From: SAR202 cluster bacterium
GTDB lineage: Bacteria; Chloroflexota; Dehalococcoidia; Lucifugimonadales; VGZY01
Direction of reading: 5' to 3'
NCBI GenBank assembly: GCA_016872355.1
Contig: VGZY01000005.1
Span: 6,547-70,546 of the forward strand
DNA length: 64,000 bases
Positions 4,547 through 60,761 of the stretch are shown here, piece by piece (position 1 is the stretch's first letter; every line of letters starts with the position of its first letter). Both the position numbers and the translations under genes were made by a program. The notes under the pieces were generated by a model. The model did no database searches. It saw only the letters and a program-made list of their open reading frames with translations, and had not been told where the DNA came from.

Positions 4547-5749
4547 TTATTTACTAGTTGCCGGCACGCTAAGAAGCTGTTGGATTTCCTCGGGAATGTC
4601 GGCTGGAAGCGAGAGCGGCCGGTTGACCGCCGTTACGATGGTGGTGCTCGTCATGGTGCTGCGGAAAGGGCCATCGGGTTGCTGGGGGAGTCGCCACACA
4701 TTTACGCGTTCTCCCGTGGACGTATTTACGCAATCGATCTGCTTGGGAGGGAGCCAGTCCCACGTCTGGTCCTGAAGGAGGTCTTCCCGATCGGGCCTGC
4801 CGTAGCTCGTGACCTCTCCATAACCTTCACCGAACGGCTTGCACCAGTCTTTCTGGGCCTCGTCGTTGGAGAATACCGGCAGGTCCGCGGTAGCCTCCAT
4901 GGTGACCTCCATTCTGCGCAGAAGTCCGTCGTCCATCCCTATCCACACGGCCAGGGTAGTTTTCTGGAGTTTGATCGTCCACGTGTCCTTGAGAGCGGAG
5001 CCGATAGGGGACGGCGTGCGCTCACCGCTCCATTCGCGACGGACGGCGTGGTATACGTCAACCTTCTCGTTGCTTAAAGTCGTCGTTTCGATCCTGGAAA
5101 TCTCATCGAATTCTTCGGTAAGCCGCTCTAGGTCGGACATAAAGACTGCCGTGGACTTGAAATCGCCGGATGCGATCACACCGTTGGGGGCGCTACTCCT
5201 CGTCCATGGGCCCAGTACGGACGGTAAGACGGACCGGTCCAACGGCTCTCTTCTGAACAGGACGCTGCTCGTTCTAAGCGTCTGCAATTCGACTCGGGTC
5301 GTCACCTGGCCGTTGCGGGATTGAGTGGACGTTATCTCCAGGAAGCCAATCCCGCGGAGAAGGTCGTCCTGATAAGCGTATGTGCTGGTGGTAACGAAAC
5401 CGGGCGTAATGGGAGAATGCCGGACAGACTCCATCGCGTAGTGGATTGTCTCTACCTGCGACATCTTCTGGTAAGCGGCGGCGAATGCATCCCTTGGCGA
5501 GAGAGGGGAAGCGGTGCTTCCAGGGCTGATGTGCGCCATATAGGCAGCCGAGGCAATCGCAATTACGGCCACGGCTGTCGCAGCGGTTACCACCCTTACA
5601 TACCCTGGGACAGTGAACGTCCTGGTCGGCCGGGCTGCCCTTCTACTTATGGCCTTCCACCGGTCGGCCTCGATTGTCATGGGATCGAGCCGTTCCGAAA
5701 GGGCTGCCCTGACGGCATCCTCATTGATGTTGCGCTGTGATTCTTTCAT
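4547..5749 (-). CDS. Single-pass membrane protein, putative anti-sigma factor (positional inference)
   Basis: Starts 32 nt after the ECF sigma stop on the same strand. Short N-terminal segment, one TM (VRVVTAATAVAVIAIASAAYMA), about 320-aa extracytoplasmic domain. No zinc-binding anti-sigma motif seen. Confidence 0.5.
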   Translation of the reverse strand: MKESQRNINEDAVRAALSERLDPMTIEADRWKAISRRAARPTRTFTVPGYVRVVTAATAVAVIAIASAAYMAHISPGSTASPLSPRDAFAAAYQKMSQVETIHYAMESVRHSPITPGFVTTSTYAYQDDLLRGIGFLEITSTQSRNGQVTTRVELQTLRTSSVLFRREPLDRSVLPSVLGPWTRSSAPNGVIASGDFKSTAVFMSDLERLTEEFDEISRIETTTLSNEKVDVYHAVRREWSGERTPSPIGSALKDTWTIKLQKTTLAVWIGMDDGLLRRMEVTMEATADLPVFSNDEAQKDWCKPFGEGYGEVTSYGRPDREDLLQDQTWDWLPPKQIDCVNTSTGERVNVWRLPQQPDGPFRSTMTSTTIVTAVNRPLSLPADIPEEIQQLLSVPATSK

Positions 5750-25990: not shown

Positions 25991-26058
25991 ACCGCTAATT
26001 GACGCCCGCCTGACCCGCTGATAGACTGGCCCCATTTCGACACGGCGGCCTTCACTTC

Positions 26059-27144
26059 ATGCCTCTCCTCTCGCACCTCACTGTGATCGACCTCACGGCG
26101 AACACGCCGGGACCGTTCTGTTCGTCGATTCTTGGAGACCTTGGCGCCCGAGTCATAAAGGTTGAGCCGCCCGGCGGCGACCCGCTCCGTGTGTCCGCGC
26201 CGGACATGTTCGCCCAGCTCAACCGCGGCAAGATGAGCGTGGCGCTCAACCTCAAGTCGGACGCTGGCCGGCAGCGGCTCAGGACGCTGGTAGAGAAGGC
26301 GGACATCGTGCTGGAGGGCTCGCGGCCCGGAGTCGCGAAGCGCCTGGGCGCAGACTTCGAGACACTCTCCGCGATAAATCCCGGCATTGTCTACTGTTCT
26401 ATCTCAGGATTCGGCCAGGACGGGCCATGGCGCGACCGGCCAGGGCACGACCTGAACTACGTCGCGCTCAGCGGGTACCTGGCCGTCCAGTCGGCCATCG
26501 AGGGCCGTCCGTACGCCCCCGCGGTGCTGATCTCCGACATGGCCTCCGGCCTCTACGCCGCGGTGGCCGTCCTTGCGGCAGTCGCGGGCAGGACCGCCTC
26601 CGGGAAGGGCGCGTACCTGGACCTGTCCATGGCGGAGTCGGCGCTGGCGATGATCACGCCGGACATCGGCGGCAAGCATCAGGAGGGCCGTTTTCAGCCC
26701 AACGTGACCGCCATTCCCACGTACGGCCTATTCCTGTGCCGCGACGGCAAGTGGATAAGCCTGGGGATTGTAAACGAGGACCACTTCTGGGAGCGCTTCT
26801 GCAAGGCCTCCGGGTTTCAAGACCTCGCAGAAATGGCGTCTCTGACCTTCCACGACCGCATGATGCAGACAGACCGCGTGCGCGCGATGCTGGGTCGCGC
26901 CTTCTGGCTGAAGGGCGGGGCGGAATGGGAGGCGATTCTCCAGAAGGCGGATGTGCCTGCTGCCCTGGTCACCAGTCTCAATGACGTATTCTCGTCTGCG
27001 CAGTTCCTCGCCCGCGGCGTATTCACCGAGCTCGCCGGCGTGCGTTACCTCTCCCAGCCGTTCAAGGTGAACGACATGACGCCCGCGCCTGCCGCGCCAC
27101 CGCCCGCGATCAACGACCACGAAGCTGAAGTGTTCGTTCCTTAG
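26059..27144 (+). CDS. CoA-transferase family III (CaiB/BaiF)
   Basis: LSHLTVIDLTANTPGPFCSSILGDLGARVIKVEPPGGDP and GHDLNYVALSG motifs. Confidence 0.9.
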   Translation: MPLLSHLTVIDLTANTPGPFCSSILGDLGARVIKVEPPGGDPLRVSAPDMFAQLNRGKMSVALNLKSDAGRQRLRTLVEKADIVLEGSRPGVAKRLGADFETLSAINPGIVYCSISGFGQDGPWRDRPGHDLNYVALSGYLAVQSAIEGRPYAPAVLISDMASGLYAAVAVLAAVAGRTASGKGAYLDLSMAESALAMITPDIGGKHQEGRFQPNVTAIPTYGLFLCRDGKWISLGIVNEDHFWERFCKASGFQDLAEMASLTFHDRMMQTDRVRAMLGRAFWLKGGAEWEAILQKADVPAALVTSLNDVFSSAQFLARGVFTELAGVRYLSQPFKVNDMTPAPAAPPPAINDHEAEVFVP

Positions 27145-34487: not shown

Positions 34488-35564
34488 TCAGTGTTCCGCC
34501 CTCTTCATGGGCTTGATGTTGCGCGTGGCCGCGATGCGGCGCTCCGCCATGCGGTCGGCCGCGACGCTCGTCGGAATCTTCTCGTCCTTGGAGGTCTGGA
34601 AGACCTTGAGCGTGGTGTCGTAGATGCGCTGCGTAATCTCTTTGGCGCGGTCCGGGTTGTAGGTCACGCCGACCTCGCAGGAGGCGTTGATGATGCCGCC
34701 GGCGTTCACCACGTAGTCGGGAGCGTAGAGGACGCCCATCTGGTGGAGCTGCTCTCCATGGCGCTCCTCGGCCAGCTGGTTGTTCGCGCCGCCGCAGATG
34801 ATCGGCGCCTTGATGCGCTTGATCGTGTTGTCGTTGATCACCGCGCCGAGGGCGCACGGGGAGAAGATGTCAGCCTTCTGGTCGTATATCTCCTCCGGCT
34901 TGACGATCGTCGCGCCCAGGGAATTCGCAACCTCTGTCGCGGGCTGGTAGAAGTCGGCGACGACCAGCTTCACGCCCTCTTTCACCAGGTGGTAGGCCGT
35001 GTTGCGGCCCACGTTGCCGAAGCCCTGCATGGCGATCGTCTTGCCCGCCAGGCTGTCGCTTCCCCAGAGCTCCTTTGCGCACGCCTTCATGCCCAGGTAG
35101 AGCCCGAGGCCGGTCATTTCTGAGGTGTCGCCGGAGCCGCCCATCGTGCGCGGCAGGCCGACGACGTACTTCGTCTCCTGGGCGATGTGCTCCAGGTCGC
35201 GCGGGGTCATGCCCACGTCCTCGGTGGTGATATAGCGGCCGCCCAACGTGTCCACGAAGCGTCCGAAGGCCCGGAGCATCGCCTCGTTCTTGTCCTTGCG
35301 GGAGTCGGCCCAGATGAGGCCCTTGCCGCCGCCGAGCGGGATGCCGGCAACCGCGGACTTGTACGTCATCGCGCGCGCCAGTCGGAGGGCGTCCATGATC
35401 GCGTCTTCTTCCGTGGGGTGCGGCCAGATGCGAACGCCGCCGGAAGAAGGGCCGAGCGTCGTGCTGTGGATGGCGATGAACGCCTTGAGGCCCACCGAGG
35501 GCTCGTAGCACATCGTGAACTGCTCGAACTTGTAGCGCTCCATGTACTCCATGGTCTTCAGCAT
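34488..35564 (-). CDS. Leucine/valine/phenylalanine dehydrogenase (Glu/Leu/Phe/Val dehydrogenase family)
   Basis: Trimmed to ATG 35564 (MLKTMEYMERYKFEQ...). AIHSTTLGPSSGGVRIW, GIPLGGGKGLI (catalytic Lys region), MQGFGNVG Rossmann motif. 358 aa. Confidence 0.9.
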   Translation of the reverse strand: MLKTMEYMERYKFEQFTMCYEPSVGLKAFIAIHSTTLGPSSGGVRIWPHPTEEDAIMDALRLARAMTYKSAVAGIPLGGGKGLIWADSRKDKNEAMLRAFGRFVDTLGGRYITTEDVGMTPRDLEHIAQETKYVVGLPRTMGGSGDTSEMTGLGLYLGMKACAKELWGSDSLAGKTIAMQGFGNVGRNTAYHLVKEGVKLVVADFYQPATEVANSLGATIVKPEEIYDQKADIFSPCALGAVINDNTIKRIKAPIICGGANNQLAEERHGEQLHQMGVLYAPDYVVNAGGIINASCEVGVTYNPDRAKEITQRIYDTTLKVFQTSKDEKIPTSVAADRMAERRIAATRNIKPMKRAEH

Positions 35565-35674
35565 GCAAAAAAACCCCCGGAGTAGTCCTGCCGGTACGGG
35601 CGACCACAGCCCGGACCGGCGGTGCGATTCGCATTGCGACGAATTTCGCAACTCCAAGCTTAACACACTGGGAC

Positions 35675-35695
35675 GGCAGTGAGCAGTGGGCAGTG
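35675..35695. repeat. Heptanucleotide tandem repeat (3 units)
   Basis: GCAGTGA GCAGTGG GCAGTGG, in the divergent intergenic region. Confidence 0.6.
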
Positions 35696-41334: not shown

Positions 41335-41363
41335 TTGACAATCAACTGCGATATGGGGATAAT
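41335..41363 (+). promoter_or_regulatory. Putative sigma-70 promoter
   Basis: TTGACA - 17 nt - GATAAT, followed by SD AAGGAGG and ATG 41397. Confidence 0.55.
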
Positions 41364-44625: not shown

Positions 44626-45918
44626 CTAGGCGGCGCGGGCCGAGTCCGGCTTCTTTACCGTGACCTTCTCGATCCTGGGCCCGCGGGTCTGTGAGACCAC
44701 GAACGTCAGGGCGCCGTAGCTCAGGCGGTCGCCTTTGGATGGGATACTGCCAAGCTCACTCATCACAAAGCCGGCTACCGTCTCGTACTCCCCGTCCGGA
44801 ATTTCGAGATTCAGCATCTCATTCAGCTCGTCGATGCGCATCGATCCGTCGATCTGGAACTCCGTATCGCTGACAGGGCGCACAGTCTCTTCCGCCCCTT
44901 CCTGTCGTGACTGTCCGACGATCTCGCCCACGAGCTGCTTGTACGTAACCATCCCGGCGATGCCGCCGAACTCATCGACGACGACCCCGGTGCTCATGCC
45001 GTTCTGGCGCATCTCGTGGAGAAGCTCCAGTACCTCCTTGGTCTCAGGGACAAAATAGGCCGGGTGAGCGTACCTTTCGATAGGGCCGGCAGGGTCAATT
45101 GCGCCCTGGCCGCTTGCTTTGACGAACTCCTTGACGGACAACATCCCGACCATGTTGTCCACGCTCCCGTCGCAGACGGGGAAGTGGCTGAAGTACTGGT
45201 GGGAGTTGAACATAAGGAATTCGGCTACCGTCATTCTGCGGTCTATCCACACAATCTTTGAGCGGCGAGTCATGATATCCCCCACATGGCGGCCGCCGGC
45301 CCGGAAGACCCTCAGGAGCATATATGCCTCGGTGTCCTGTACCGCGCCGGTGCGGCGGCCGTGGGAGATGAGCGACTTGATCTCCTCCTCGGTAATGCCC
45401 GGCTCAGGGTTTTGCTTTATCCCCAGAATGCGCAGCGCCAGGTGAGTGGTAACGCTGAGCACGGCGGCGACCGGGGCGAACAGCTTTGCGACGAGCATCA
45501 TGGGGCGTGAGAGCGCGGATGCGATGGTCTCCGGGTGGCTTAGCGCGAGCTGCTTGGGCACGAGCTCTCCGATAATTAGAGAGGCGAAGACGATCACCGC
45601 GACAACAACGGCGAAGGCGATCTCTTCGTTGTAGGCGCCAACGTACGGCAGGCCTGCGAGCGCGGGGCTAATGTCTTCTGCGATTCGCGCTCCGCCGAAG
45701 GCGCCTGAGAGGATGCCGATTAGAGTAATACCAATCTGTACAGTGGAGAGGAAGCGTGTGGGGGACTGGCCAAGTATCAGGGCAGCCAGCGCACCTTGAT
45801 CGCCCTGGTCGGCGCGGTGCTGTAGCTTCGTCCTGCGGGCGGACACTACCGCGAACTCCGCCATGGAGAATACGCCATTGGCGAGGATCAGTACAGCGAT
45901 GATACCGACTTCAAACAT
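44626..45918 (-). CDS. Hemolysin/CNNM family protein (DUF21-CBS pair-CorC_HlyC)
   Basis: Trimmed to ATG 45918 (AGGAG upstream). LANGVFSMAEFAVVSARR DUF21 motif, CBS pair, C-terminal transporter-associated domain. Confidence 0.9.
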   Translation of the reverse strand: MFEVGIIAVLILANGVFSMAEFAVVSARRTKLQHRADQGDQGALAALILGQSPTRFLSTVQIGITLIGILSGAFGGARIAEDISPALAGLPYVGAYNEEIAFAVVVAVIVFASLIIGELVPKQLALSHPETIASALSRPMMLVAKLFAPVAAVLSVTTHLALRILGIKQNPEPGITEEEIKSLISHGRRTGAVQDTEAYMLLRVFRAGGRHVGDIMTRRSKIVWIDRRMTVAEFLMFNSHQYFSHFPVCDGSVDNMVGMLSVKEFVKASGQGAIDPAGPIERYAHPAYFVPETKEVLELLHEMRQNGMSTGVVVDEFGGIAGMVTYKQLVGEIVGQSRQEGAEETVRPVSDTEFQIDGSMRIDELNEMLNLEIPDGEYETVAGFVMSELGSIPSKGDRLSYGALTFVVSQTRGPRIEKVTVKKPDSARAA

Positions 45919-46102
45919 GCGAGGAGGCTCCTGGGTGCTCTCCCCGAGACAGGCAGAGCGCCCAGGCCATTCTAGCACCTGAGGGCATTTGGCCGTACGG
46001 CTTCCAGGAGCCTATTCCAGGAAAAACCCACGCGAGCCACCCAGAATGAACTCTGGAAGGATGCATTGCCGCTGCGATCGTCGCCGTCCGTGGAGTGAGT
46101 TG

Positions 46103-46111
46103 TGGTAGAAT
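46103..46111 (+). promoter_or_regulatory. Extended -10 promoter element
   Basis: TGgTAGAAT. No good -35 element. Confidence 0.4.
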
Positions 46112-46120
46112 GGCGCTGAT

Positions 46121-46210
46121 ATGAAAGCTTGCCTTGCGATCGGTGTCTCCAGGGTAGCTATGATCGCCACGGTAGTAGTACGTGGCCGGTTACCTGTGGG
46201 GAGGAATTAG
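46121..46210 (+). CDS. Candidate leader peptide (29 aa) rich in Val/Ile/Leu
   Basis: MKACLAIGVSRVAMIATVVVRGRLPVGRN. Three consecutive GTA codons at 46172-46180. Its end overlaps the antiterminator arm. Confidence 0.45.
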   Translation: MKACLAIGVSRVAMIATVVVRGRLPVGRN

Positions 46211-46242
46211 GCTCGTCCGGTCGCACCGGACACCATCTCTGG

Positions 46243-46267
46243 ACCTCCCTGAACGGGAGGTTTTTTT
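46243..46267 (+). terminator. Intrinsic terminator directly upstream of ilvE (attenuator)
   Basis: aCCTCCC - TGAAC - GGGAGGt followed by T7. Lies 28 nt before the ilvE ATG, with SD AAGGAG in between. Confidence 0.6.
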
Positions 46268-46295
46268 GTGGAACGGACATACCAAGGAGTAGACG

Positions 46296-47387
46296 ATGTC
46301 ACGAGCAACGGAGCTTAACGACGGCAGGTCCACAGAAGGCCAAAAGAGCGCCGCTCCGCAGGCGAAGAAGGCCAACCTGGGCTTTGGCCGGACATTCACA
46401 TCACACATGTTCGTCATGGAGTGGACCAAGGACCGGGGATGGCACAGCCAGCGGATAGAGCCGTATGGCTCGCTTACCCTGGACCCGGCGGCGGCGGTGC
46501 TGCACTACGGGCAGGCGCTGTTCGAGGGGCTGAAGGCGTTCAAGACACGAGACGGGCGCATCGTGATGTTCAGGCCGGACCGCCACTTCAAGCGCATGAA
46601 GGAGGGGGCAGCACGGCTTGTGATGCCCGAGATCGACTCCGACACGGTGATGAAGTGGCTCGTGGAGCTCGTTACGAAGGATAGGAACTGGGTCCCGTCC
46701 GAACCGAGTACGGCGCTTTACATTCGCCCCACGCTGGTGGCGACGGAGCCGTTCCTTGGGGTGAGGCCATCAGAGAGTTATCTGTTCTTGATCATTATGT
46801 CGCCAGTGGAGCCCCTATACGGTCTAACGCCCAGGCCGCTGAAGCTGTGGGCGGAGACGAAATACGTGAGGGCGGCCCCCGGCGGCCTGGGCGCATCGAA
46901 GACAGCCGCCAACTACGTCGCCAGCCTGGCAGGCTCGGTGGCCGCGAAGTCGAAAGGGTTCGACCAGGTGATCTGGCTGGACGCAATCGAGCGAAAGTAC
47001 GTGGAAGAGGTCGGCACGATGAACCTCTTCGCCGTAATCGACGGCGAGCTGGTCACGCCGCCGCTCGGGGACACAATCCTGCCTGGGGTCACCAGAGACT
47101 CCATCCTCACCCTCGCGAAGGAGTGGGGCCTGAGGGCAAGTCAGCGCAGGATTTCGCTGGAGGAGATCGTTGCTGCCGACCGGTCCGCCAAGCTGCAGGA
47201 GATATTCGGCTGCGGCACGGCGGCTGTGTTGTCCAGGGTAGGGCAGCTCGCGGGAGATGGGTTCGATATCGCCCTGCCGATGCGCGACGGGTCATACGCC
47301 CAGCGCTTCTACGACGCCATCACTAACGTCCAATACGGCCTCGCGCCTGACACCCACGGGTGGCTGAAAGAGGTGCGCCAGGGGTGA
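46296..47387 (+). CDS. ilvE: Branched-chain-amino-acid aminotransferase
   Basis: FGRTFTSHMF, YGQALFEGLKAF, 363 aa, long-form class IV aminotransferase. SD AAGGAG 6 nt upstream. Confidence 0.92.
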   Translation: MSRATELNDGRSTEGQKSAAPQAKKANLGFGRTFTSHMFVMEWTKDRGWHSQRIEPYGSLTLDPAAAVLHYGQALFEGLKAFKTRDGRIVMFRPDRHFKRMKEGAARLVMPEIDSDTVMKWLVELVTKDRNWVPSEPSTALYIRPTLVATEPFLGVRPSESYLFLIIMSPVEPLYGLTPRPLKLWAETKYVRAAPGGLGASKTAANYVASLAGSVAAKSKGFDQVIWLDAIERKYVEEVGTMNLFAVIDGELVTPPLGDTILPGVTRDSILTLAKEWGLRASQRRISLEEIVAADRSAKLQEIFGCGTAAVLSRVGQLAGDGFDIALPMRDGSYAQRFYDAITNVQYGLAPDTHGWLKEVRQG

Positions 47388-47415
47388 GGCCCATCTCGTC
47401 GCCGGGGGTGATTCA

Positions 47416-48942
47416 GTGCCTCAGCAATCGAGTCGGGCCAGACCCGTAAGGCGCGCGGCCAAGCCCAAGGTCCTCTTTGCAGCCCCGCCCAGCGATGTTG
47501 CCACCGCCTGCATCGCCCGGTACGCCCGCTCCAGGGCCCCGGAAACGCGCGTACTCTTCTCAGACATCGCCCGTTATCCTGGCCTGATAGCGGAGATGGG
47601 GCCGGAAGCAGAAGGCATCGAGGGGACGGTTAACAGTTATGATCCTGAAACGGGCTTCGAGGCCGCTTTCACCGCCAGATTCAACCGGCCCCTGCCCAGC
47701 TACGCCGCAGCCACCCACGACGCCGTCCTTCTCCTTGCCTACGGGCTAGAGCGCTCAGGAGGCGTGGGCGGCGAGTCCCTGGCCAGGGCTATGGGCGAGG
47801 TGGTCGACGGGACCGGGCACACCACCGGATGGGACCCAGCGGGCGTCAAGGACGCCCTTGGCGCAAACCGGAGCGGCAACCTCCCCAACGTCTCAGGCGG
47901 AACCGGCGGTCTGGCCTACAGCCCGGACCTGCGCACGGAGCTAAGCTCTTCAACTTACGGCCACTGGAAGGTCTCAGGCGGGAAGTTCGTCTTCCAGGAA
48001 TTCATCTCGACCTCGCCGGATGCCCATGAAGGCTCCCTCTCGGCCGAGTCGCTTTTCCGCACGCTGGCCTCGGAGAGCAAACGCGATAACGGGACGGCCA
48101 CGGGAGCATCCGCGGCCTATGACCCTGGGCCGCGTGCGGGTCTGTGGGCGCTCATCGTCGCTGGCTTGGCCGGTTGGGAGAACTACCGTCACCAGGCCGA
48201 CGCGCTGGCCTTCTACCAGCTACTGCGATCACGCGGCGTGGCTGATGACCGCATTGTGCTCGCCATGGCGGACGACATCGCCGGCAGCCCGCGCAACCCG
48301 GAGCCGGGCATAGTAAGGAACTACCCCGGCGGCCCCAACCTGCACGAAGGCGCGAATATCGATTACCGCACCTCCAGCCTCTCGGAAAGCGACCTCAGCG
48401 CCATTCTGAACGGAGAGAGCACCACCTCCTTGCCGCACGTGATATCTGCCGGGCGACAGGACAACGTGCTGCTATTTATGGTGGGCCACGGCGGTCGGGC
48501 AGGTTTCTATATGGGCGTTCATAGCGCCGGAGACAGCGTTCAGGAAGGCGAGGCCACAGTACTTGACTCTGCCGAGCTTGCCGGGATGCTGGGATCCCTG
48601 TCGGCTTCCGGCAGGTTCCGGCGGCTCCTCATCGTCGTGGAGGCATGCCACGCAGGTGCTCTGGGAGCGGAGATCAAAACGCCCGGAGTCCTGCTTATCA
48701 CGGGCGCCAATGCGACCGAGAACTCGCAGGCGTCAAACTACGATGTCAAACTGAACCAGTTCCTCGCGGACGACTTTGCCTGGGAGCTCTTCAGGCTTGG
48801 TTCCGACTCGCCTTCACTCTCACTCGACGAGGCGCACCGCATTGCATACGTCCGTGTGAAGGCATCCCATGTCTCCGCCTACAACGAGGACCGTTTCGGG
48901 GACATGGCCACGGTTACGCTGGCCGAATTTATATCCCCGTAG
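47416..48942 (+). CDS. Fusion protein: partial type-1 periplasmic-binding-protein-like region + legumain-like peptidase C13 domain
   Basis: aa 243-508 align by eye to legumain: WALIVAGLAGWENYRHQAD, MADDIAGSPRNPEPGIV, catalytic His in FMVGHGG (His358), catalytic Cys in VVEACHAGA (Cys411). aa 60-200 resemble the C-terminal lobe of Leu/Ile/Val-type binding proteins (SYAAATHDAVLLLAYGLE). No signal peptide. GTG start 28 nt after the ilvE stop. Confidence 0.8.
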   Translation: MPQQSSRARPVRRAAKPKVLFAAPPSDVATACIARYARSRAPETRVLFSDIARYPGLIAEMGPEAEGIEGTVNSYDPETGFEAAFTARFNRPLPSYAAATHDAVLLLAYGLERSGGVGGESLARAMGEVVDGTGHTTGWDPAGVKDALGANRSGNLPNVSGGTGGLAYSPDLRTELSSSTYGHWKVSGGKFVFQEFISTSPDAHEGSLSAESLFRTLASESKRDNGTATGASAAYDPGPRAGLWALIVAGLAGWENYRHQADALAFYQLLRSRGVADDRIVLAMADDIAGSPRNPEPGIVRNYPGGPNLHEGANIDYRTSSLSESDLSAILNGESTTSLPHVISAGRQDNVLLFMVGHGGRAGFYMGVHSAGDSVQEGEATVLDSAELAGMLGSLSASGRFRRLLIVVEACHAGALGAEIKTPGVLLITGANATENSQASNYDVKLNQFLADDFAWELFRLGSDSPSLSLDEAHRIAYVRVKASHVSAYNEDRFGDMATVTLAEFISP

Positions 48943-59617: not shown

Positions 59618-60648
59618 AGCGAGTCCTCGCCCCCGGTCAGCCACTCCAGATTGAACTGCGCGAGACGGATCGCCTCGCGGCGGTGGTAGTTGCCGCGCTC
59701 GTACAGGCACGCTATTGTGCCGTCCGGGGCTATCGCGAGGTCGGAGTAAGAGGAAGGGCCGGCGTGCAGCACCCGCGAGACGGGCCAGGAGCGGCATTCG
59801 TCGTAACTCAGGCGGACGGTCATAGTGTTTCGCTCAACGGACGCTGGGTTGGCGAACAGCACTCGGCTCTTGCCGTGCCCGGCCGCAGTTGTGTAGCGCA
59901 ATACGCTGGCCTGGCACACCGGGTCCGGGAGCGGCTCCACTTCCGCTGCCTTTGACCACGTCAACCCGCCGTCCGCGCTCCAGGCCTCCACACGTCGCCT
60001 GGCGTCCTTCCGTGAGGGGCGCATCGACATTTAGGTTCGGCCATCCTCGCTCTCCACAGCCATGCACTCGTCCGTCCACGGCGCTATGTCTGCGCCCGCC
60101 TTCCACGTCGCCCCGTGGTCGTCGGTGTACACGACGTGGCTGCGGAATAACGGCCAGCCCTGGCGAGTCCCCTGGCGGTGGTCGCTGGGGACGATCAGCC
60201 GCCCGGACCGGGCCTGGATGCCGTGTCCCGGTCCTGTGCCGTACCACGTCCAGCCCGCTGGCTTGACATCGCCGGTTATCTCGCGCGGCGCGGCCCAGGA
60301 AACGCCGTCATCGTCGGAGTGCATAACGAAAACCCTGTCGTTGTCCCAGCAGTACACCAGCCAGACCCGGCCGGTGTCCCGGTCCACAATCGGGCAGGGG
60401 TTGCCGATGGTGTGCTCTCCGTCCGAGTGGACGACGCTCATCGCTCCCCAGGACGCCCCTCCGTCCATGCTTCGCCGGAGGACGATGTGGATCTCGCCCC
60501 AGTCCGAGTGGTCGTACTTCCTTCCCTCGCAGAAGGCAAGCATCGTCCCGCGCGGCGTCGTCACCAGCGCCGGGATCCTGTAGGTGTGGTACCCATCCAG
60601 GCCCTGGGCGAATATCTCCGTCTCACGGAACCACGGCCGGTTACTCAT
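59614..60648 (-). pseudogene. GH33 exo-alpha-sialidase (BNR/Asp-box) split by an in-frame TAA (60031-60033)
   Basis: YRIPAL (RIP motif). Asp boxes SMDGGASW, SDDDGVSW, TDDHGATW upstream of the stop and SADGGLTW downstream. The two track ORFs (60031..60648 and 59614..60030) are contiguous in one frame: ...GRT TAA ATG SMR... Confidence 0.85.
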
Positions 60649-60761
60649 GGCTTTACCTCGTGGGCGCCATTCTAACAGCAGCCTGACGGAGCAACAATCG
60701 GAGCAAAATGACCGCCTGAAGGTGATAAACTGCGAGGACGATTCTTATTTGAGAGGCGGAT

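Follow-up and report, generated by a model that had tools for sequence, protein, structure and literature searches.

In this work we analysed a stretch of 64,000 nucleotides (hereafter the window) from the genome of a SAR202 cluster bacterium of the Chloroflexota (GenBank assembly GCA_016872355.1, contig VGZY01000005.1, positions 6,547 to 70,546), and in particular the leader that precedes the branched-chain aminotransferase gene ilvE. The sequence of this leader suggests that it is probably a ribosome-mediated transcription attenuator of ilvE, in which translation of a short leader peptide would report the supply of valine, or of branched-chain amino acids (BCAA) in general. A short open reading frame (ORF) with three consecutive valine codons, an intrinsic terminator and an antiterminator strand lie between the promoter element and ilvE, the two helices exclude each other, and their placement relative to the ORF fits the geometry of classical leader-peptide attenuation.

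Elements and alternative folds of the ilvE leader

A preliminary description of this region had placed an extended -10 element (TGgTAGAAT) at 46103-46111, a 29-codon ORF with 10 Leu, Ile or Val residues at 46121-46210, three GTA codons within it at 46172-46180 and, further on, GGGAGG at 46199-46204, CCTCCC at 46244-46249, a second GGGAGG at 46255-46260 and seven T at 46261-46267. All of these elements are present at those positions (Table 1), and the -10 motif occurs three times in the window, on each occasion before a gene. The encoded peptide ends in ...RLPVGRN*, with the TAG at 46208-46210. GTA and TTA, which had been regarded as rare codons, indeed account for only 11% of the Val codons and 1% of the Leu codons in the 47 long ORFs of the window, in which the G+C content of third codon positions (GC3) is about 0.8. 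The codons also fit the pathway, since the leader ORF has three Val codons and ilvE makes Val, Ile and Leu.

The terminator scan detected a hairpin of 9 pairs with a 5-nt loop, followed by a T-tract, 28 nt before the ilvE ATG at 46296, corroborating the intrinsic terminator proposed before. The 64 kb contain just four runs of at least six T or A, and this is the sole clean hairpin-plus-T7 in a 5' leader within the window; generic terminator-like matches elsewhere are no commoner in the window than in shuffled sequences. The gap between the terminator and the ilvE Shine-Dalgarno (SD) sequence is 16 nt, with no space for another promoter. Since the terminator stands between the promoter and ilvE and no further promoter has room there, ilvE can be transcribed only by read-through. 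In addition, the upstream neighbour, a CNNM/CorC-type gene that most probably starts at the ATG at 45918, is divergent, and the terminator can therefore act only on a transcript heading into ilvE.

The pairing of the first GGGAGG with CCTCCC had been described as a helix of six bases. The competing helix exists, and its length proved to be 12 bp with a 2-nt bulge: 46193-46204 pairs with CCUCCCU (46244-46250) and with ACGGG (46253-46257). Of the terminator, this helix engages the 5' arm, the loop and the beginning of the 3' arm, so the two structures are mutually exclusive. Constrained folding, also proposed in the preliminary description, showed that the full-length folds are nearly isoenergetic, with -57.4 kcal/mol for the terminator and -56.4 kcal/mol for the forced antiterminator. 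In nascent transcripts ending at 46250-46258 the antiterminator, with 7 to 12 pairs, is part of the minimum free energy (MFE) structure, and the upstream part folds into two local hairpins, 46126-46159 and 46161-46192. The second of these (hairpin B in Table 1) is a possible pause or '1:2'-type hairpin. The alternative helix P2, predicted in the full-length fold, resembles classical 1:2 pairing in that it would sequester part of the antiterminator 5' strand as an anti-antiterminator.

We also simulated the masking of the leader by a ribosome with a footprint extending from P-12 to P+15. For a ribosome at the first, second or third Val codon, the footprint reaches to 46184-46190 and the antiterminator stays, whereas with the stop codon in the A site the footprint (46193-46220) spans the whole antiterminator strand and the helix is abolished. 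The simulations thus reproduce the classical geometry suggested for this leader, in which stalling on the Val run frees 46199-46204 and a ribosome at the stop codon masks it.

From these elements we infer the following course of events. RNA polymerase would start at about 46118, as predicted from the TGgTAGAATGG promoter at 46103-46113, and a ribosome would translate 46121-46210 or the in-frame version that begins at 46160. With plentiful Val-tRNA (more generally, BCAA-tRNA) the ribosome would reach the TAG at 46208 and cover 46193-46220; CCUGUGGGGAGG would then be masked, the hairpin 46241-46263 with its U7 would form and the polymerase would stop 28 nt before ilvE. When charged tRNA-Val is scarce, the ribosome would stall on the three rare GUA codons in the loop of the hairpin 46161-46192, and probably also at the scattered Ile codons upstream of them; its 3' edge would lie at about 46184-46190, and 46193-46204 would be free. 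The free strand would form the 12-bp antiterminator with 46244-46257 and pre-empt the terminator, and ilvE would be transcribed, probably together with the truncated peptidase C13 gene that follows it.

The coincidence of these features was compared with chance by fixing the antiterminator and the terminator and dinucleotide-shuffling the upstream 75 nt, counting ORFs of at least 10 codons with a stop at which a ribosome would mask the antiterminator. An ATG ORF with VVV, LLL or III upstream of the antiterminator strand appeared in 0.2% of the shuffles, and one with such a triplet or at least four consecutive L/I/V codons in 0.5% (ATG) or 1.8% (any start codon), percentages that are post-hoc and assume no separate reason for the GTA repeat.

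Table 1. Features of the ilvE leader, its promoter motif and the adjoining genes (window coordinates).
Feature	Position	Strand	Basis or remark
Extended -10 promoter element TGgTAGAATGG	46103-46113	+	Motif TGGTAGAAT at 46103-46111; recurrent in the window
Candidate leader ORF, 29 codons plus TAG	46121-46210	+	Encodes MKACLAIGVSRVAMIATVVVRGRLPVGRN; 10/29 residues L/I/V
Alternative in-frame start ATG	46160	+	Gives the 16-aa MIATVVVRGRLPVGRN; AGGG 5 nt upstream
Helix P2 (alternative)	46148-46200	+	46148-46159 with 46188-46200; full-length MFE
Hairpin B, 11 bp, one bulge	46161-46192	+	Loop GUAGUAGUA, the three Val codons; nascent MFE; abuts the antiterminator strand
GTA GTA GTA (Val x3), proposed stall site	46172-46180	+	Whole 9-nt loop of the hairpin 46161-46192
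Antiterminator 5' strand CCUGUGGGGAGG	46193-46204	+	GGGAGG at 46199-46204, 3 nt before TAG
Small hairpin GUCCGGU-CGC-ACCGGAC	46215-46231	+	Within the antiterminator loop; present in all folds
Intrinsic terminator	46241-46267	+	Stem GGACCUCCC / GGGAGGUUU, loop UGAAC, hairpin 46241-46263, U7 46261-46267
ilvE Shine-Dalgarno AAGGAG	46284-46289	+	Precedes ATG 46296
ilvE, class II branched-chain aminotransferase	46284-47387	+	SD plus coding sequence (46296-47387, 363 aa); NCBIfam, Pfam
PBP (Peripla_BP_6)-peptidase C13 gene remnant	47416-48942	+	Homologue alignment; without about 180-210 N-terminal residues
TGNTAGAATGG copy	45967-45977	-	Faces the divergent CNNM gene
TGNTAGAATGG copy	60667-60677	-	Faces the gene starting at 60648
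TGNTAGAATGG copy, one mismatch	26019-26029	+	Precedes the gene at 26059

Known attenuators and a recurrent leader design

Leader-peptide attenuation is a textbook mechanism that is documented mainly in Proteobacteria and Actinobacteria, and the enterobacterial ilvGMEDA (ilvL) and ilvBN (ivbL) leaders are classical examples. They share with the window a short ORF with tandem Val/Ile/Leu codons, a mutually exclusive terminator and antiterminator, the masking of the antiterminator by a ribosome at the stop codon, and an operon that includes ilvE. The window differs from them in having much fewer BCAA codons (one VVV), no SD sequence, an ORF near the 5' end and a stand-alone class II ilvE; it belongs to another lineage, the SAR202 group of Chloroflexota, and has no detectable sequence homology to them.

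The closest experimentally studied analogue is ilvB1NC of Mycobacterium tuberculosis. There, the upstream ORF (uORF) is rich in BCAA codons, and its stall site, 'LVVI', includes GUA as a regulatory codon. The choice between terminator and antiterminator depends on whether the footprint of the ribosome, about 26 nt long, has its centre at the regulatory codon or at the stop codon, as supported by SEnd-seq, ribosome profiling and reporters (PMC13236596). The GUA-containing stall site, the footprint logic and a GC-rich genome are common to both, whereas the mycobacterial system controls ilvB1NC and not ilvE and has experimental support, the window leader being a candidate predicted from its sequence. 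The ilvBNC operon of Corynebacterium glutamicum has a three-hairpin attenuator (PMC11857589), and actinobacterial amino-acid leaders have been assigned to leader-peptide attenuation (PMC1262725); as proposed for the window, these are BCAA leader-peptide attenuators outside Proteobacteria with several competing hairpins, although gene, phylum and sequences are different. The mycobacterial poly-Cys uORF attenuators, which sense cysteine, have leaderless transcripts that start exactly at the AUG or GUG (bioRxiv 10.1101/834739). These resemble the window in their regulatory short ORF at or near the 5' end without an SD sequence, and differ from it in that the window AUG is predicted at +3 or +4 and not at the transcript 5' end. 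For Chloroflexota or SAR202, we found no description of leader-peptide attenuation in the literature searched, which did not cover subscription literature.

A pattern with the hexamers copied from the window (GGGAGG N25-55 CCTCCC N3-8 GGGAGGTTTTT, hereafter the platform) was found in at least 119 metagenome loci (L057-L175). Among the matches listed, 109 of 120 have an ATG ORF of at least 8 codons whose end lies at -12 to +36 nt relative to the first GGGAGG, and 58 encode a peptide run, defined as at least three identical residues or at least four L/I/V. In these run-bearing leaders the type of run fits the gene behind the terminator: FFF(F) leaders precede chorismate mutase/prephenate dehydratase (PheA) and DAHP synthase; a CCC leader, a PALP (CysK-type) enzyme; a TTTTT leader, an amino-acid kinase; a YYWHY leader, a class I/II aminotransferase; and L/I/V tracts, acetolactate synthase (L115, L149), an HMGL-like isopropylmalate/citramalate synthase (L125) and a class IV aminotransferase (L127). 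Judging from these pairings of codons and genes, most of the loci listed are leader-peptide attenuators, for which the platform is a much-used chassis.

The window resembles these leaders in its spacing. Its run lies 18 nt from GGGAGG, inside the interquartile range (11-20) of the 58 comparable leaders, and its stop offset of +9 is just below their interquartile range (12-19) and the same as in L090, L108, L125 and L167. Across the 119 loci listed, pairing of the antiterminator extension is stronger with the terminator loop of the same locus (-15.5 kcal/mol) than with loops taken from elsewhere in the set (-14.4 kcal/mol; p = 0.0017). No Rfam leader family matched any of the 14 platform loci tested.

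Further observations were made on the platform loci. Many of them come from low-GC contigs, some of about 1 Mb, and the U-run is often directly followed by a start codon; the 3' arm GGGAGG may double as the SD sequence of the downstream gene. In L069, L100, L132 and L148, leaders rich in Tyr/Trp (..NYWYYGKPLREALLS*, ..NWYYGKASSGG..) stand before members of the Asp/Glu/hydantoin racemase family (for L100, Pfam PF01177); aromatic codons would not be expected in front of a racemase-like enzyme. A group I intron match (RF00028, 61 bits, ending at the locus edge) was found at 4710-4993 (+) of L106, whose contig also carries a Tyr/Trp/His leader attenuator.

Comparators close to the window in design are the BCAA leaders on Anaerolineae-like Chloroflexota contigs (L149, L176, L177 and L180, together with L090, L115 and L125). 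The named relatives of the L149 IlvB protein are only proteins from Anaerolineae/Anaerolineales metagenome-assembled genomes, with 72-74% identity. For L090, L115, L125 and L149 the platform hexamers were imposed by the search pattern, and part of their likeness to the window is by construction; the ilvBNC loci L176, L177 and L180 were fetched by IlvB homology, independently of the DNA pattern, and all three carry the same platform elements as the window; their IlvB proteins, too, have Anaerolineae as named relatives. Their leaders encode MFQVSGALSLISLLVALLVVLEEGLLPVGR (L176), MRSISVSLSLISLLIGLLVALTRTFPVGRR (L180) and ...IIILVVVELLLSIEKELAGVGRRPGT*, ending in ..GVGRRPGT (L177). The ending '..PVGR' plus 0-1 residue and a stop is common to the window leader, L176 and L180, and a related 'GVGR' plus 1-4 residues is found in L177 and L090.

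The window and the Anaerolineae-type leaders have the following architecture in common: a hairpin with the regulatory codons; an antiterminator strand whose terminal GGGAGG is translated as Gly-Arg; 0-4 further codons before the stop; and a terminator built from CCUCCC and GGGAGG. The platform is identical, the antiterminator also pairs with the terminator loop in both, and the last BCAA codons stand in a hairpin loop 10-20 nt upstream, as in the window. Leaders of the L149/L176/L180 type have the antiterminator strand CCGGUUGGGAGG, every base of which is complementary to CCUCCCAAUCGG (arm plus loop). BCAA codons stand in the loop of the last hairpin ahead of the antiterminator (VV, VVL, IAII and others) in 11 of the 12 BCAA leaders used as comparators. 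The Anaerolineae-type leaders, unlike the window, have long L/I/V tracts such as SLSLISLLVALLVVL, precede ilvBNC or leuA/cimA, and have CUCCUC/GAGGAG hairpin stems. On the basis of this architecture, the window leader and the Anaerolineae-type leaders are of the same design; homology is not claimed.

Within the comparators, the arms of the codon-bearing hairpin are SD/anti-SD-like, with CUCCUC...GAGGAG kept in L149, L176, L180 and L125 and CUCCUU/AAGGAG in L115. The leuA/cimA leader L125 and the ilvB leader L149 share GAGGAGTCATTGCC.G.TGGGAGG, which suggests paralogy between attenuators of different BCAA operons.

Weighing of the proposed attenuator and of its alternatives

Several observations weigh against a leader-peptide attenuator before ilvE. 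A length of 29 codons is unremarkable by itself, and the GC3 of the ORF (16/29, about 55%, compared with about 0.8 in genes) has a non-coding look. The AUG at 46121 has no SD sequence and lies about 3 nt (+3 or +4) from the predicted transcription start, and other genes of the window carry leaders with SD sequences; the comparator metagenome leaders likewise have weak or distant SD sequences. The peptide is poor in BCAA codons, with a single VVV run compared with the long L/I/V tracts of the comparators. A properly placed ATG ORF was found in 19% of the shuffles, and an ORF in the right position in 19-45%; if the GTA repeat has another cause, just two frames are free of stops, and the valine frame is one of them. 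The duplex energy of the antiterminator was equalled by 11-18% of dinucleotide shuffles of the upstream region, and we do not use it as statistical support, which would be weak (p = 0.11-0.18). Outside the platform, local alignment of the 70 nt upstream and the spacer against dinucleotide shuffles revealed no significant similarity in nucleotide sequence with the Anaerolineae-type leaders (p = 0.32-0.70), so the likeness described above is architectural only.

The relatives of ilvE and the platform itself add to these points. The genome scan for ilvE returned 49 loci, the best of them 54% identical, and among 5.8 billion proteins the next-best relative is 58-60% identical, with none above 60%; the nearest homologues are in other phyla, and those inspected belong mostly to GC-richer organisms. 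Upstream of the ilvE homologues (L001-L049 and L050-L056) no terminator or leader was found beside the gene, though these relatives are too distant to inform on conservation. In platform locus L065, a SAM-I/IV riboswitch aptamer (Rfam, 43.3 bits; 1160-1427, -) lies directly upstream of the platform; the platform is not exclusive to leader peptides. The 'MMM leader peptide' of L065 may be part of the riboswitch and not a real ORF, and similar Met-rich ORFs are present in L068, L158 and L164. Finally, should this class II branched-chain aminotransferase serve mainly catabolism in SAR202, its induction by starvation would make no sense.

Some of these points also favour the main alternative, which we consider unlikely: that the switch is real and is set by an RNA-binding protein, a tRNA or a small ligand instead of a translating ribosome, the mini-ORF being fortuitous. 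By recognising helix P2 or the two local hairpins (46126-46159 and 46161-46192), such a sensor would make the antiterminator more stable or block it. It would accommodate an ORF that lacks an SD sequence and coding GC3 and is well placed by chance as often as the shuffles indicate, the availability of the valine frame as one of two stop-free frames once the GTA repeat stands in an open frame, and the aptamer adjoining the platform in L065. In addition, the GUAGUAGUA triplets are presented exactly as the loop of a stable 11-bp hairpin, and the leader region folds better than its shuffles (-66.9 kcal/mol, z = -2.6). However, loop-borne regulatory codons are regular in unmistakable BCAA leader peptides, and since they were found in 11 of the 12 comparators the (GUA)3 loop no longer suggests another type of sensor. 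The placement of the stop codon relative to the antiterminator strand would also be left unexplained. A cmscan of 45700-46600 against the 4227 families of Rfam 15 at E <= 10 gave only AS1726 (E = 5.5) and sul1 (E = 5.9), at chance level and far below gathering scores, and the whole window has no Rfam family at gathering thresholds and no tRNA gene. BCAA riboswitches and (GUA)n-binding regulators are not known.

We consider it improbable that the element is not a working regulator of ilvE, being instead an independent small transcript (a small RNA or micro-protein gene) or a decayed attenuator left over from the rearrangement that put ilvE before the truncated gene downstream, with ilvE expressed by constitutive leak-through. 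The locus is indeed rearranged, the downstream gene being short of about 200 N-terminal codons; ilvE is without close relatives, its nearest homologues being in other phyla; and the leader peptide has fewer BCAA codons than those of the comparators. Against this, no alternative promoter fits in the 16 nt between the terminator and the ilvE SD sequence, and everything in the leader is intact, with a perfect hairpin, a complete U7, an open ORF and a 12-bp antiterminator. The GC3 of ilvE (0.82) corresponds to the codon usage of the host, which indicates that ilvE is not a recent arrival.

A T-box riboswitch sensing uncharged tRNA-Val is effectively excluded: in Firmicutes and some Chloroflexi, ilv/leu genes and those for aminoacyl-tRNA synthetases are under T-box control, and a GUA codon is exposed in a loop here, but the cmscan by which the preliminary description had proposed to exclude this family gave no RF00230 match at E <= 10 in 45700-46600, and no conserved T-box sequence, neither a T-box 14-mer nor a UGGN bulge, is visible in the leader.

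Promoter motif, neighbouring genes and significance of the leader

The promoter scan found no good -35 element at 46103-46113, and no classical two-hexamer sigma-70 promoter was found for the leader; the recurrent extended -10 motif was adopted instead. The motif TGNTAGAATGG has three exact copies in the 64-kb window, all of them intergenic and facing a gene, which supports the promoter better than a single match would. In its TGNTAGAATGG(CGC) form it lies upstream of four genes of the window. Three of these sites have a weak -35 element or none, and the fourth, at 26019-26029, carries the hexamer TTGACG 17 nt before its -10. Judging from this recurrence, the motif is probably the housekeeping promoter consensus of the SAR202 organism. 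Paralogous copies of the leader were not found in the window, where the sole match, of 11 nt, is at the shared promoter. The best two-hexamer sigma-70 match of the window is elsewhere, at 41335-41363 (+) (TTGACA-17-GATAAT, 11/12), where Rfam finds nothing; the next called gene (41816) follows only after about 450 nt, and the match could lead to a long leader or to an unannotated small gene or RNA.

The assignment of ilvE is based on NCBIfam PRK13357 (431.9 bits, cut-off 307) and TIGR01123 ilvE_II (347.5 bits, cut-off 250), and Pfam Aminotran_4 also matches the product. The gene downstream of ilvE combines a periplasmic binding protein (PBP) domain with peptidase C13. Its homologues have 670-740 aa, and the alignment begins at their residues 177-213, corresponding to 47410-47455 of the window; no part of the window encodes the N-terminal PBP half that is missing, or any signal peptide belonging to it. 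The possibility that the leader is a leftover of this missing part was rejected, as tblastn with full-length homologues finds nothing in 45919-46295. It seems that ilvE and its leader replaced the 5' end of the PBP-C13 gene. The proposal that this gene, described before as PBP/legumain, is under the same control stands in that it is probably co-transcribed with ilvE, and has to be amended in that the gene is N-terminally truncated; it may be a pseudogene, or be expressed only by ilvE read-through.

The only other T7 in a 5' leader of the window is at 35573-35567 (-), 2 nt before a gene for a Glu/Leu/Phe/Val-type amino-acid dehydrogenase (34491-35564, -). The leader of this gene (35564-35680, -) is structured, has about 100 nt and begins after a TGtTAAGCT -10-like element. 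It was rejected as a sister attenuator, since neither a clean terminator hairpin nor a leader ORF nor an Rfam match was found, and the GGGGG before its U-run may be an SD sequence. The dehydrogenase gene is thus a second amino-acid-metabolism gene with an unusual leader in the window.

A broader reading of the ilvE attenuator, which we regard as rather unlikely, is that it is one instance of a widespread and apparently uncatalogued attenuator 'cassette', made of an SD-like GGGAGG that falls within the final codons of the ORF and serves as antiterminator strand, an anti-SD-like CCUCCC as 5' arm of the terminator and a GGGAGG plus U-run as 3' arm. The recurrence of these hexamers across Phe, Cys, Thr, Tyr/Trp/His, Leu and Ile/Val leaders of very different genomes would then reflect a mechanistic role and not chance. 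For example, the 16S anti-SD of the terminating ribosome could pair with the GGGAGG in the ORF and hold the ribosome there; alternatively, the 3' arm could also be the SD sequence of the downstream gene, coupling transcriptional and translational control. If this reading is true, leader-peptide control would extend to a stand-alone SAR202 ilvE, with a near-leaderless sensor of valine only.

The signature itself, in which a CCUCCC/GGGAGG-U terminator comes after a leader ORF with GGGAGG at its end, retrieves many further attenuators from metagenomes, and with its oddly invariant SD/anti-SD-like hexamers it is perhaps of wider interest than the single ilvE locus. If the attenuator before ilvE is real, it would imply coupled transcription and translation in SAR202, and it would be a concrete, testable case of amino-acid sensing by translation-transcription coupling in an abundant, uncultured lineage of the deep ocean.

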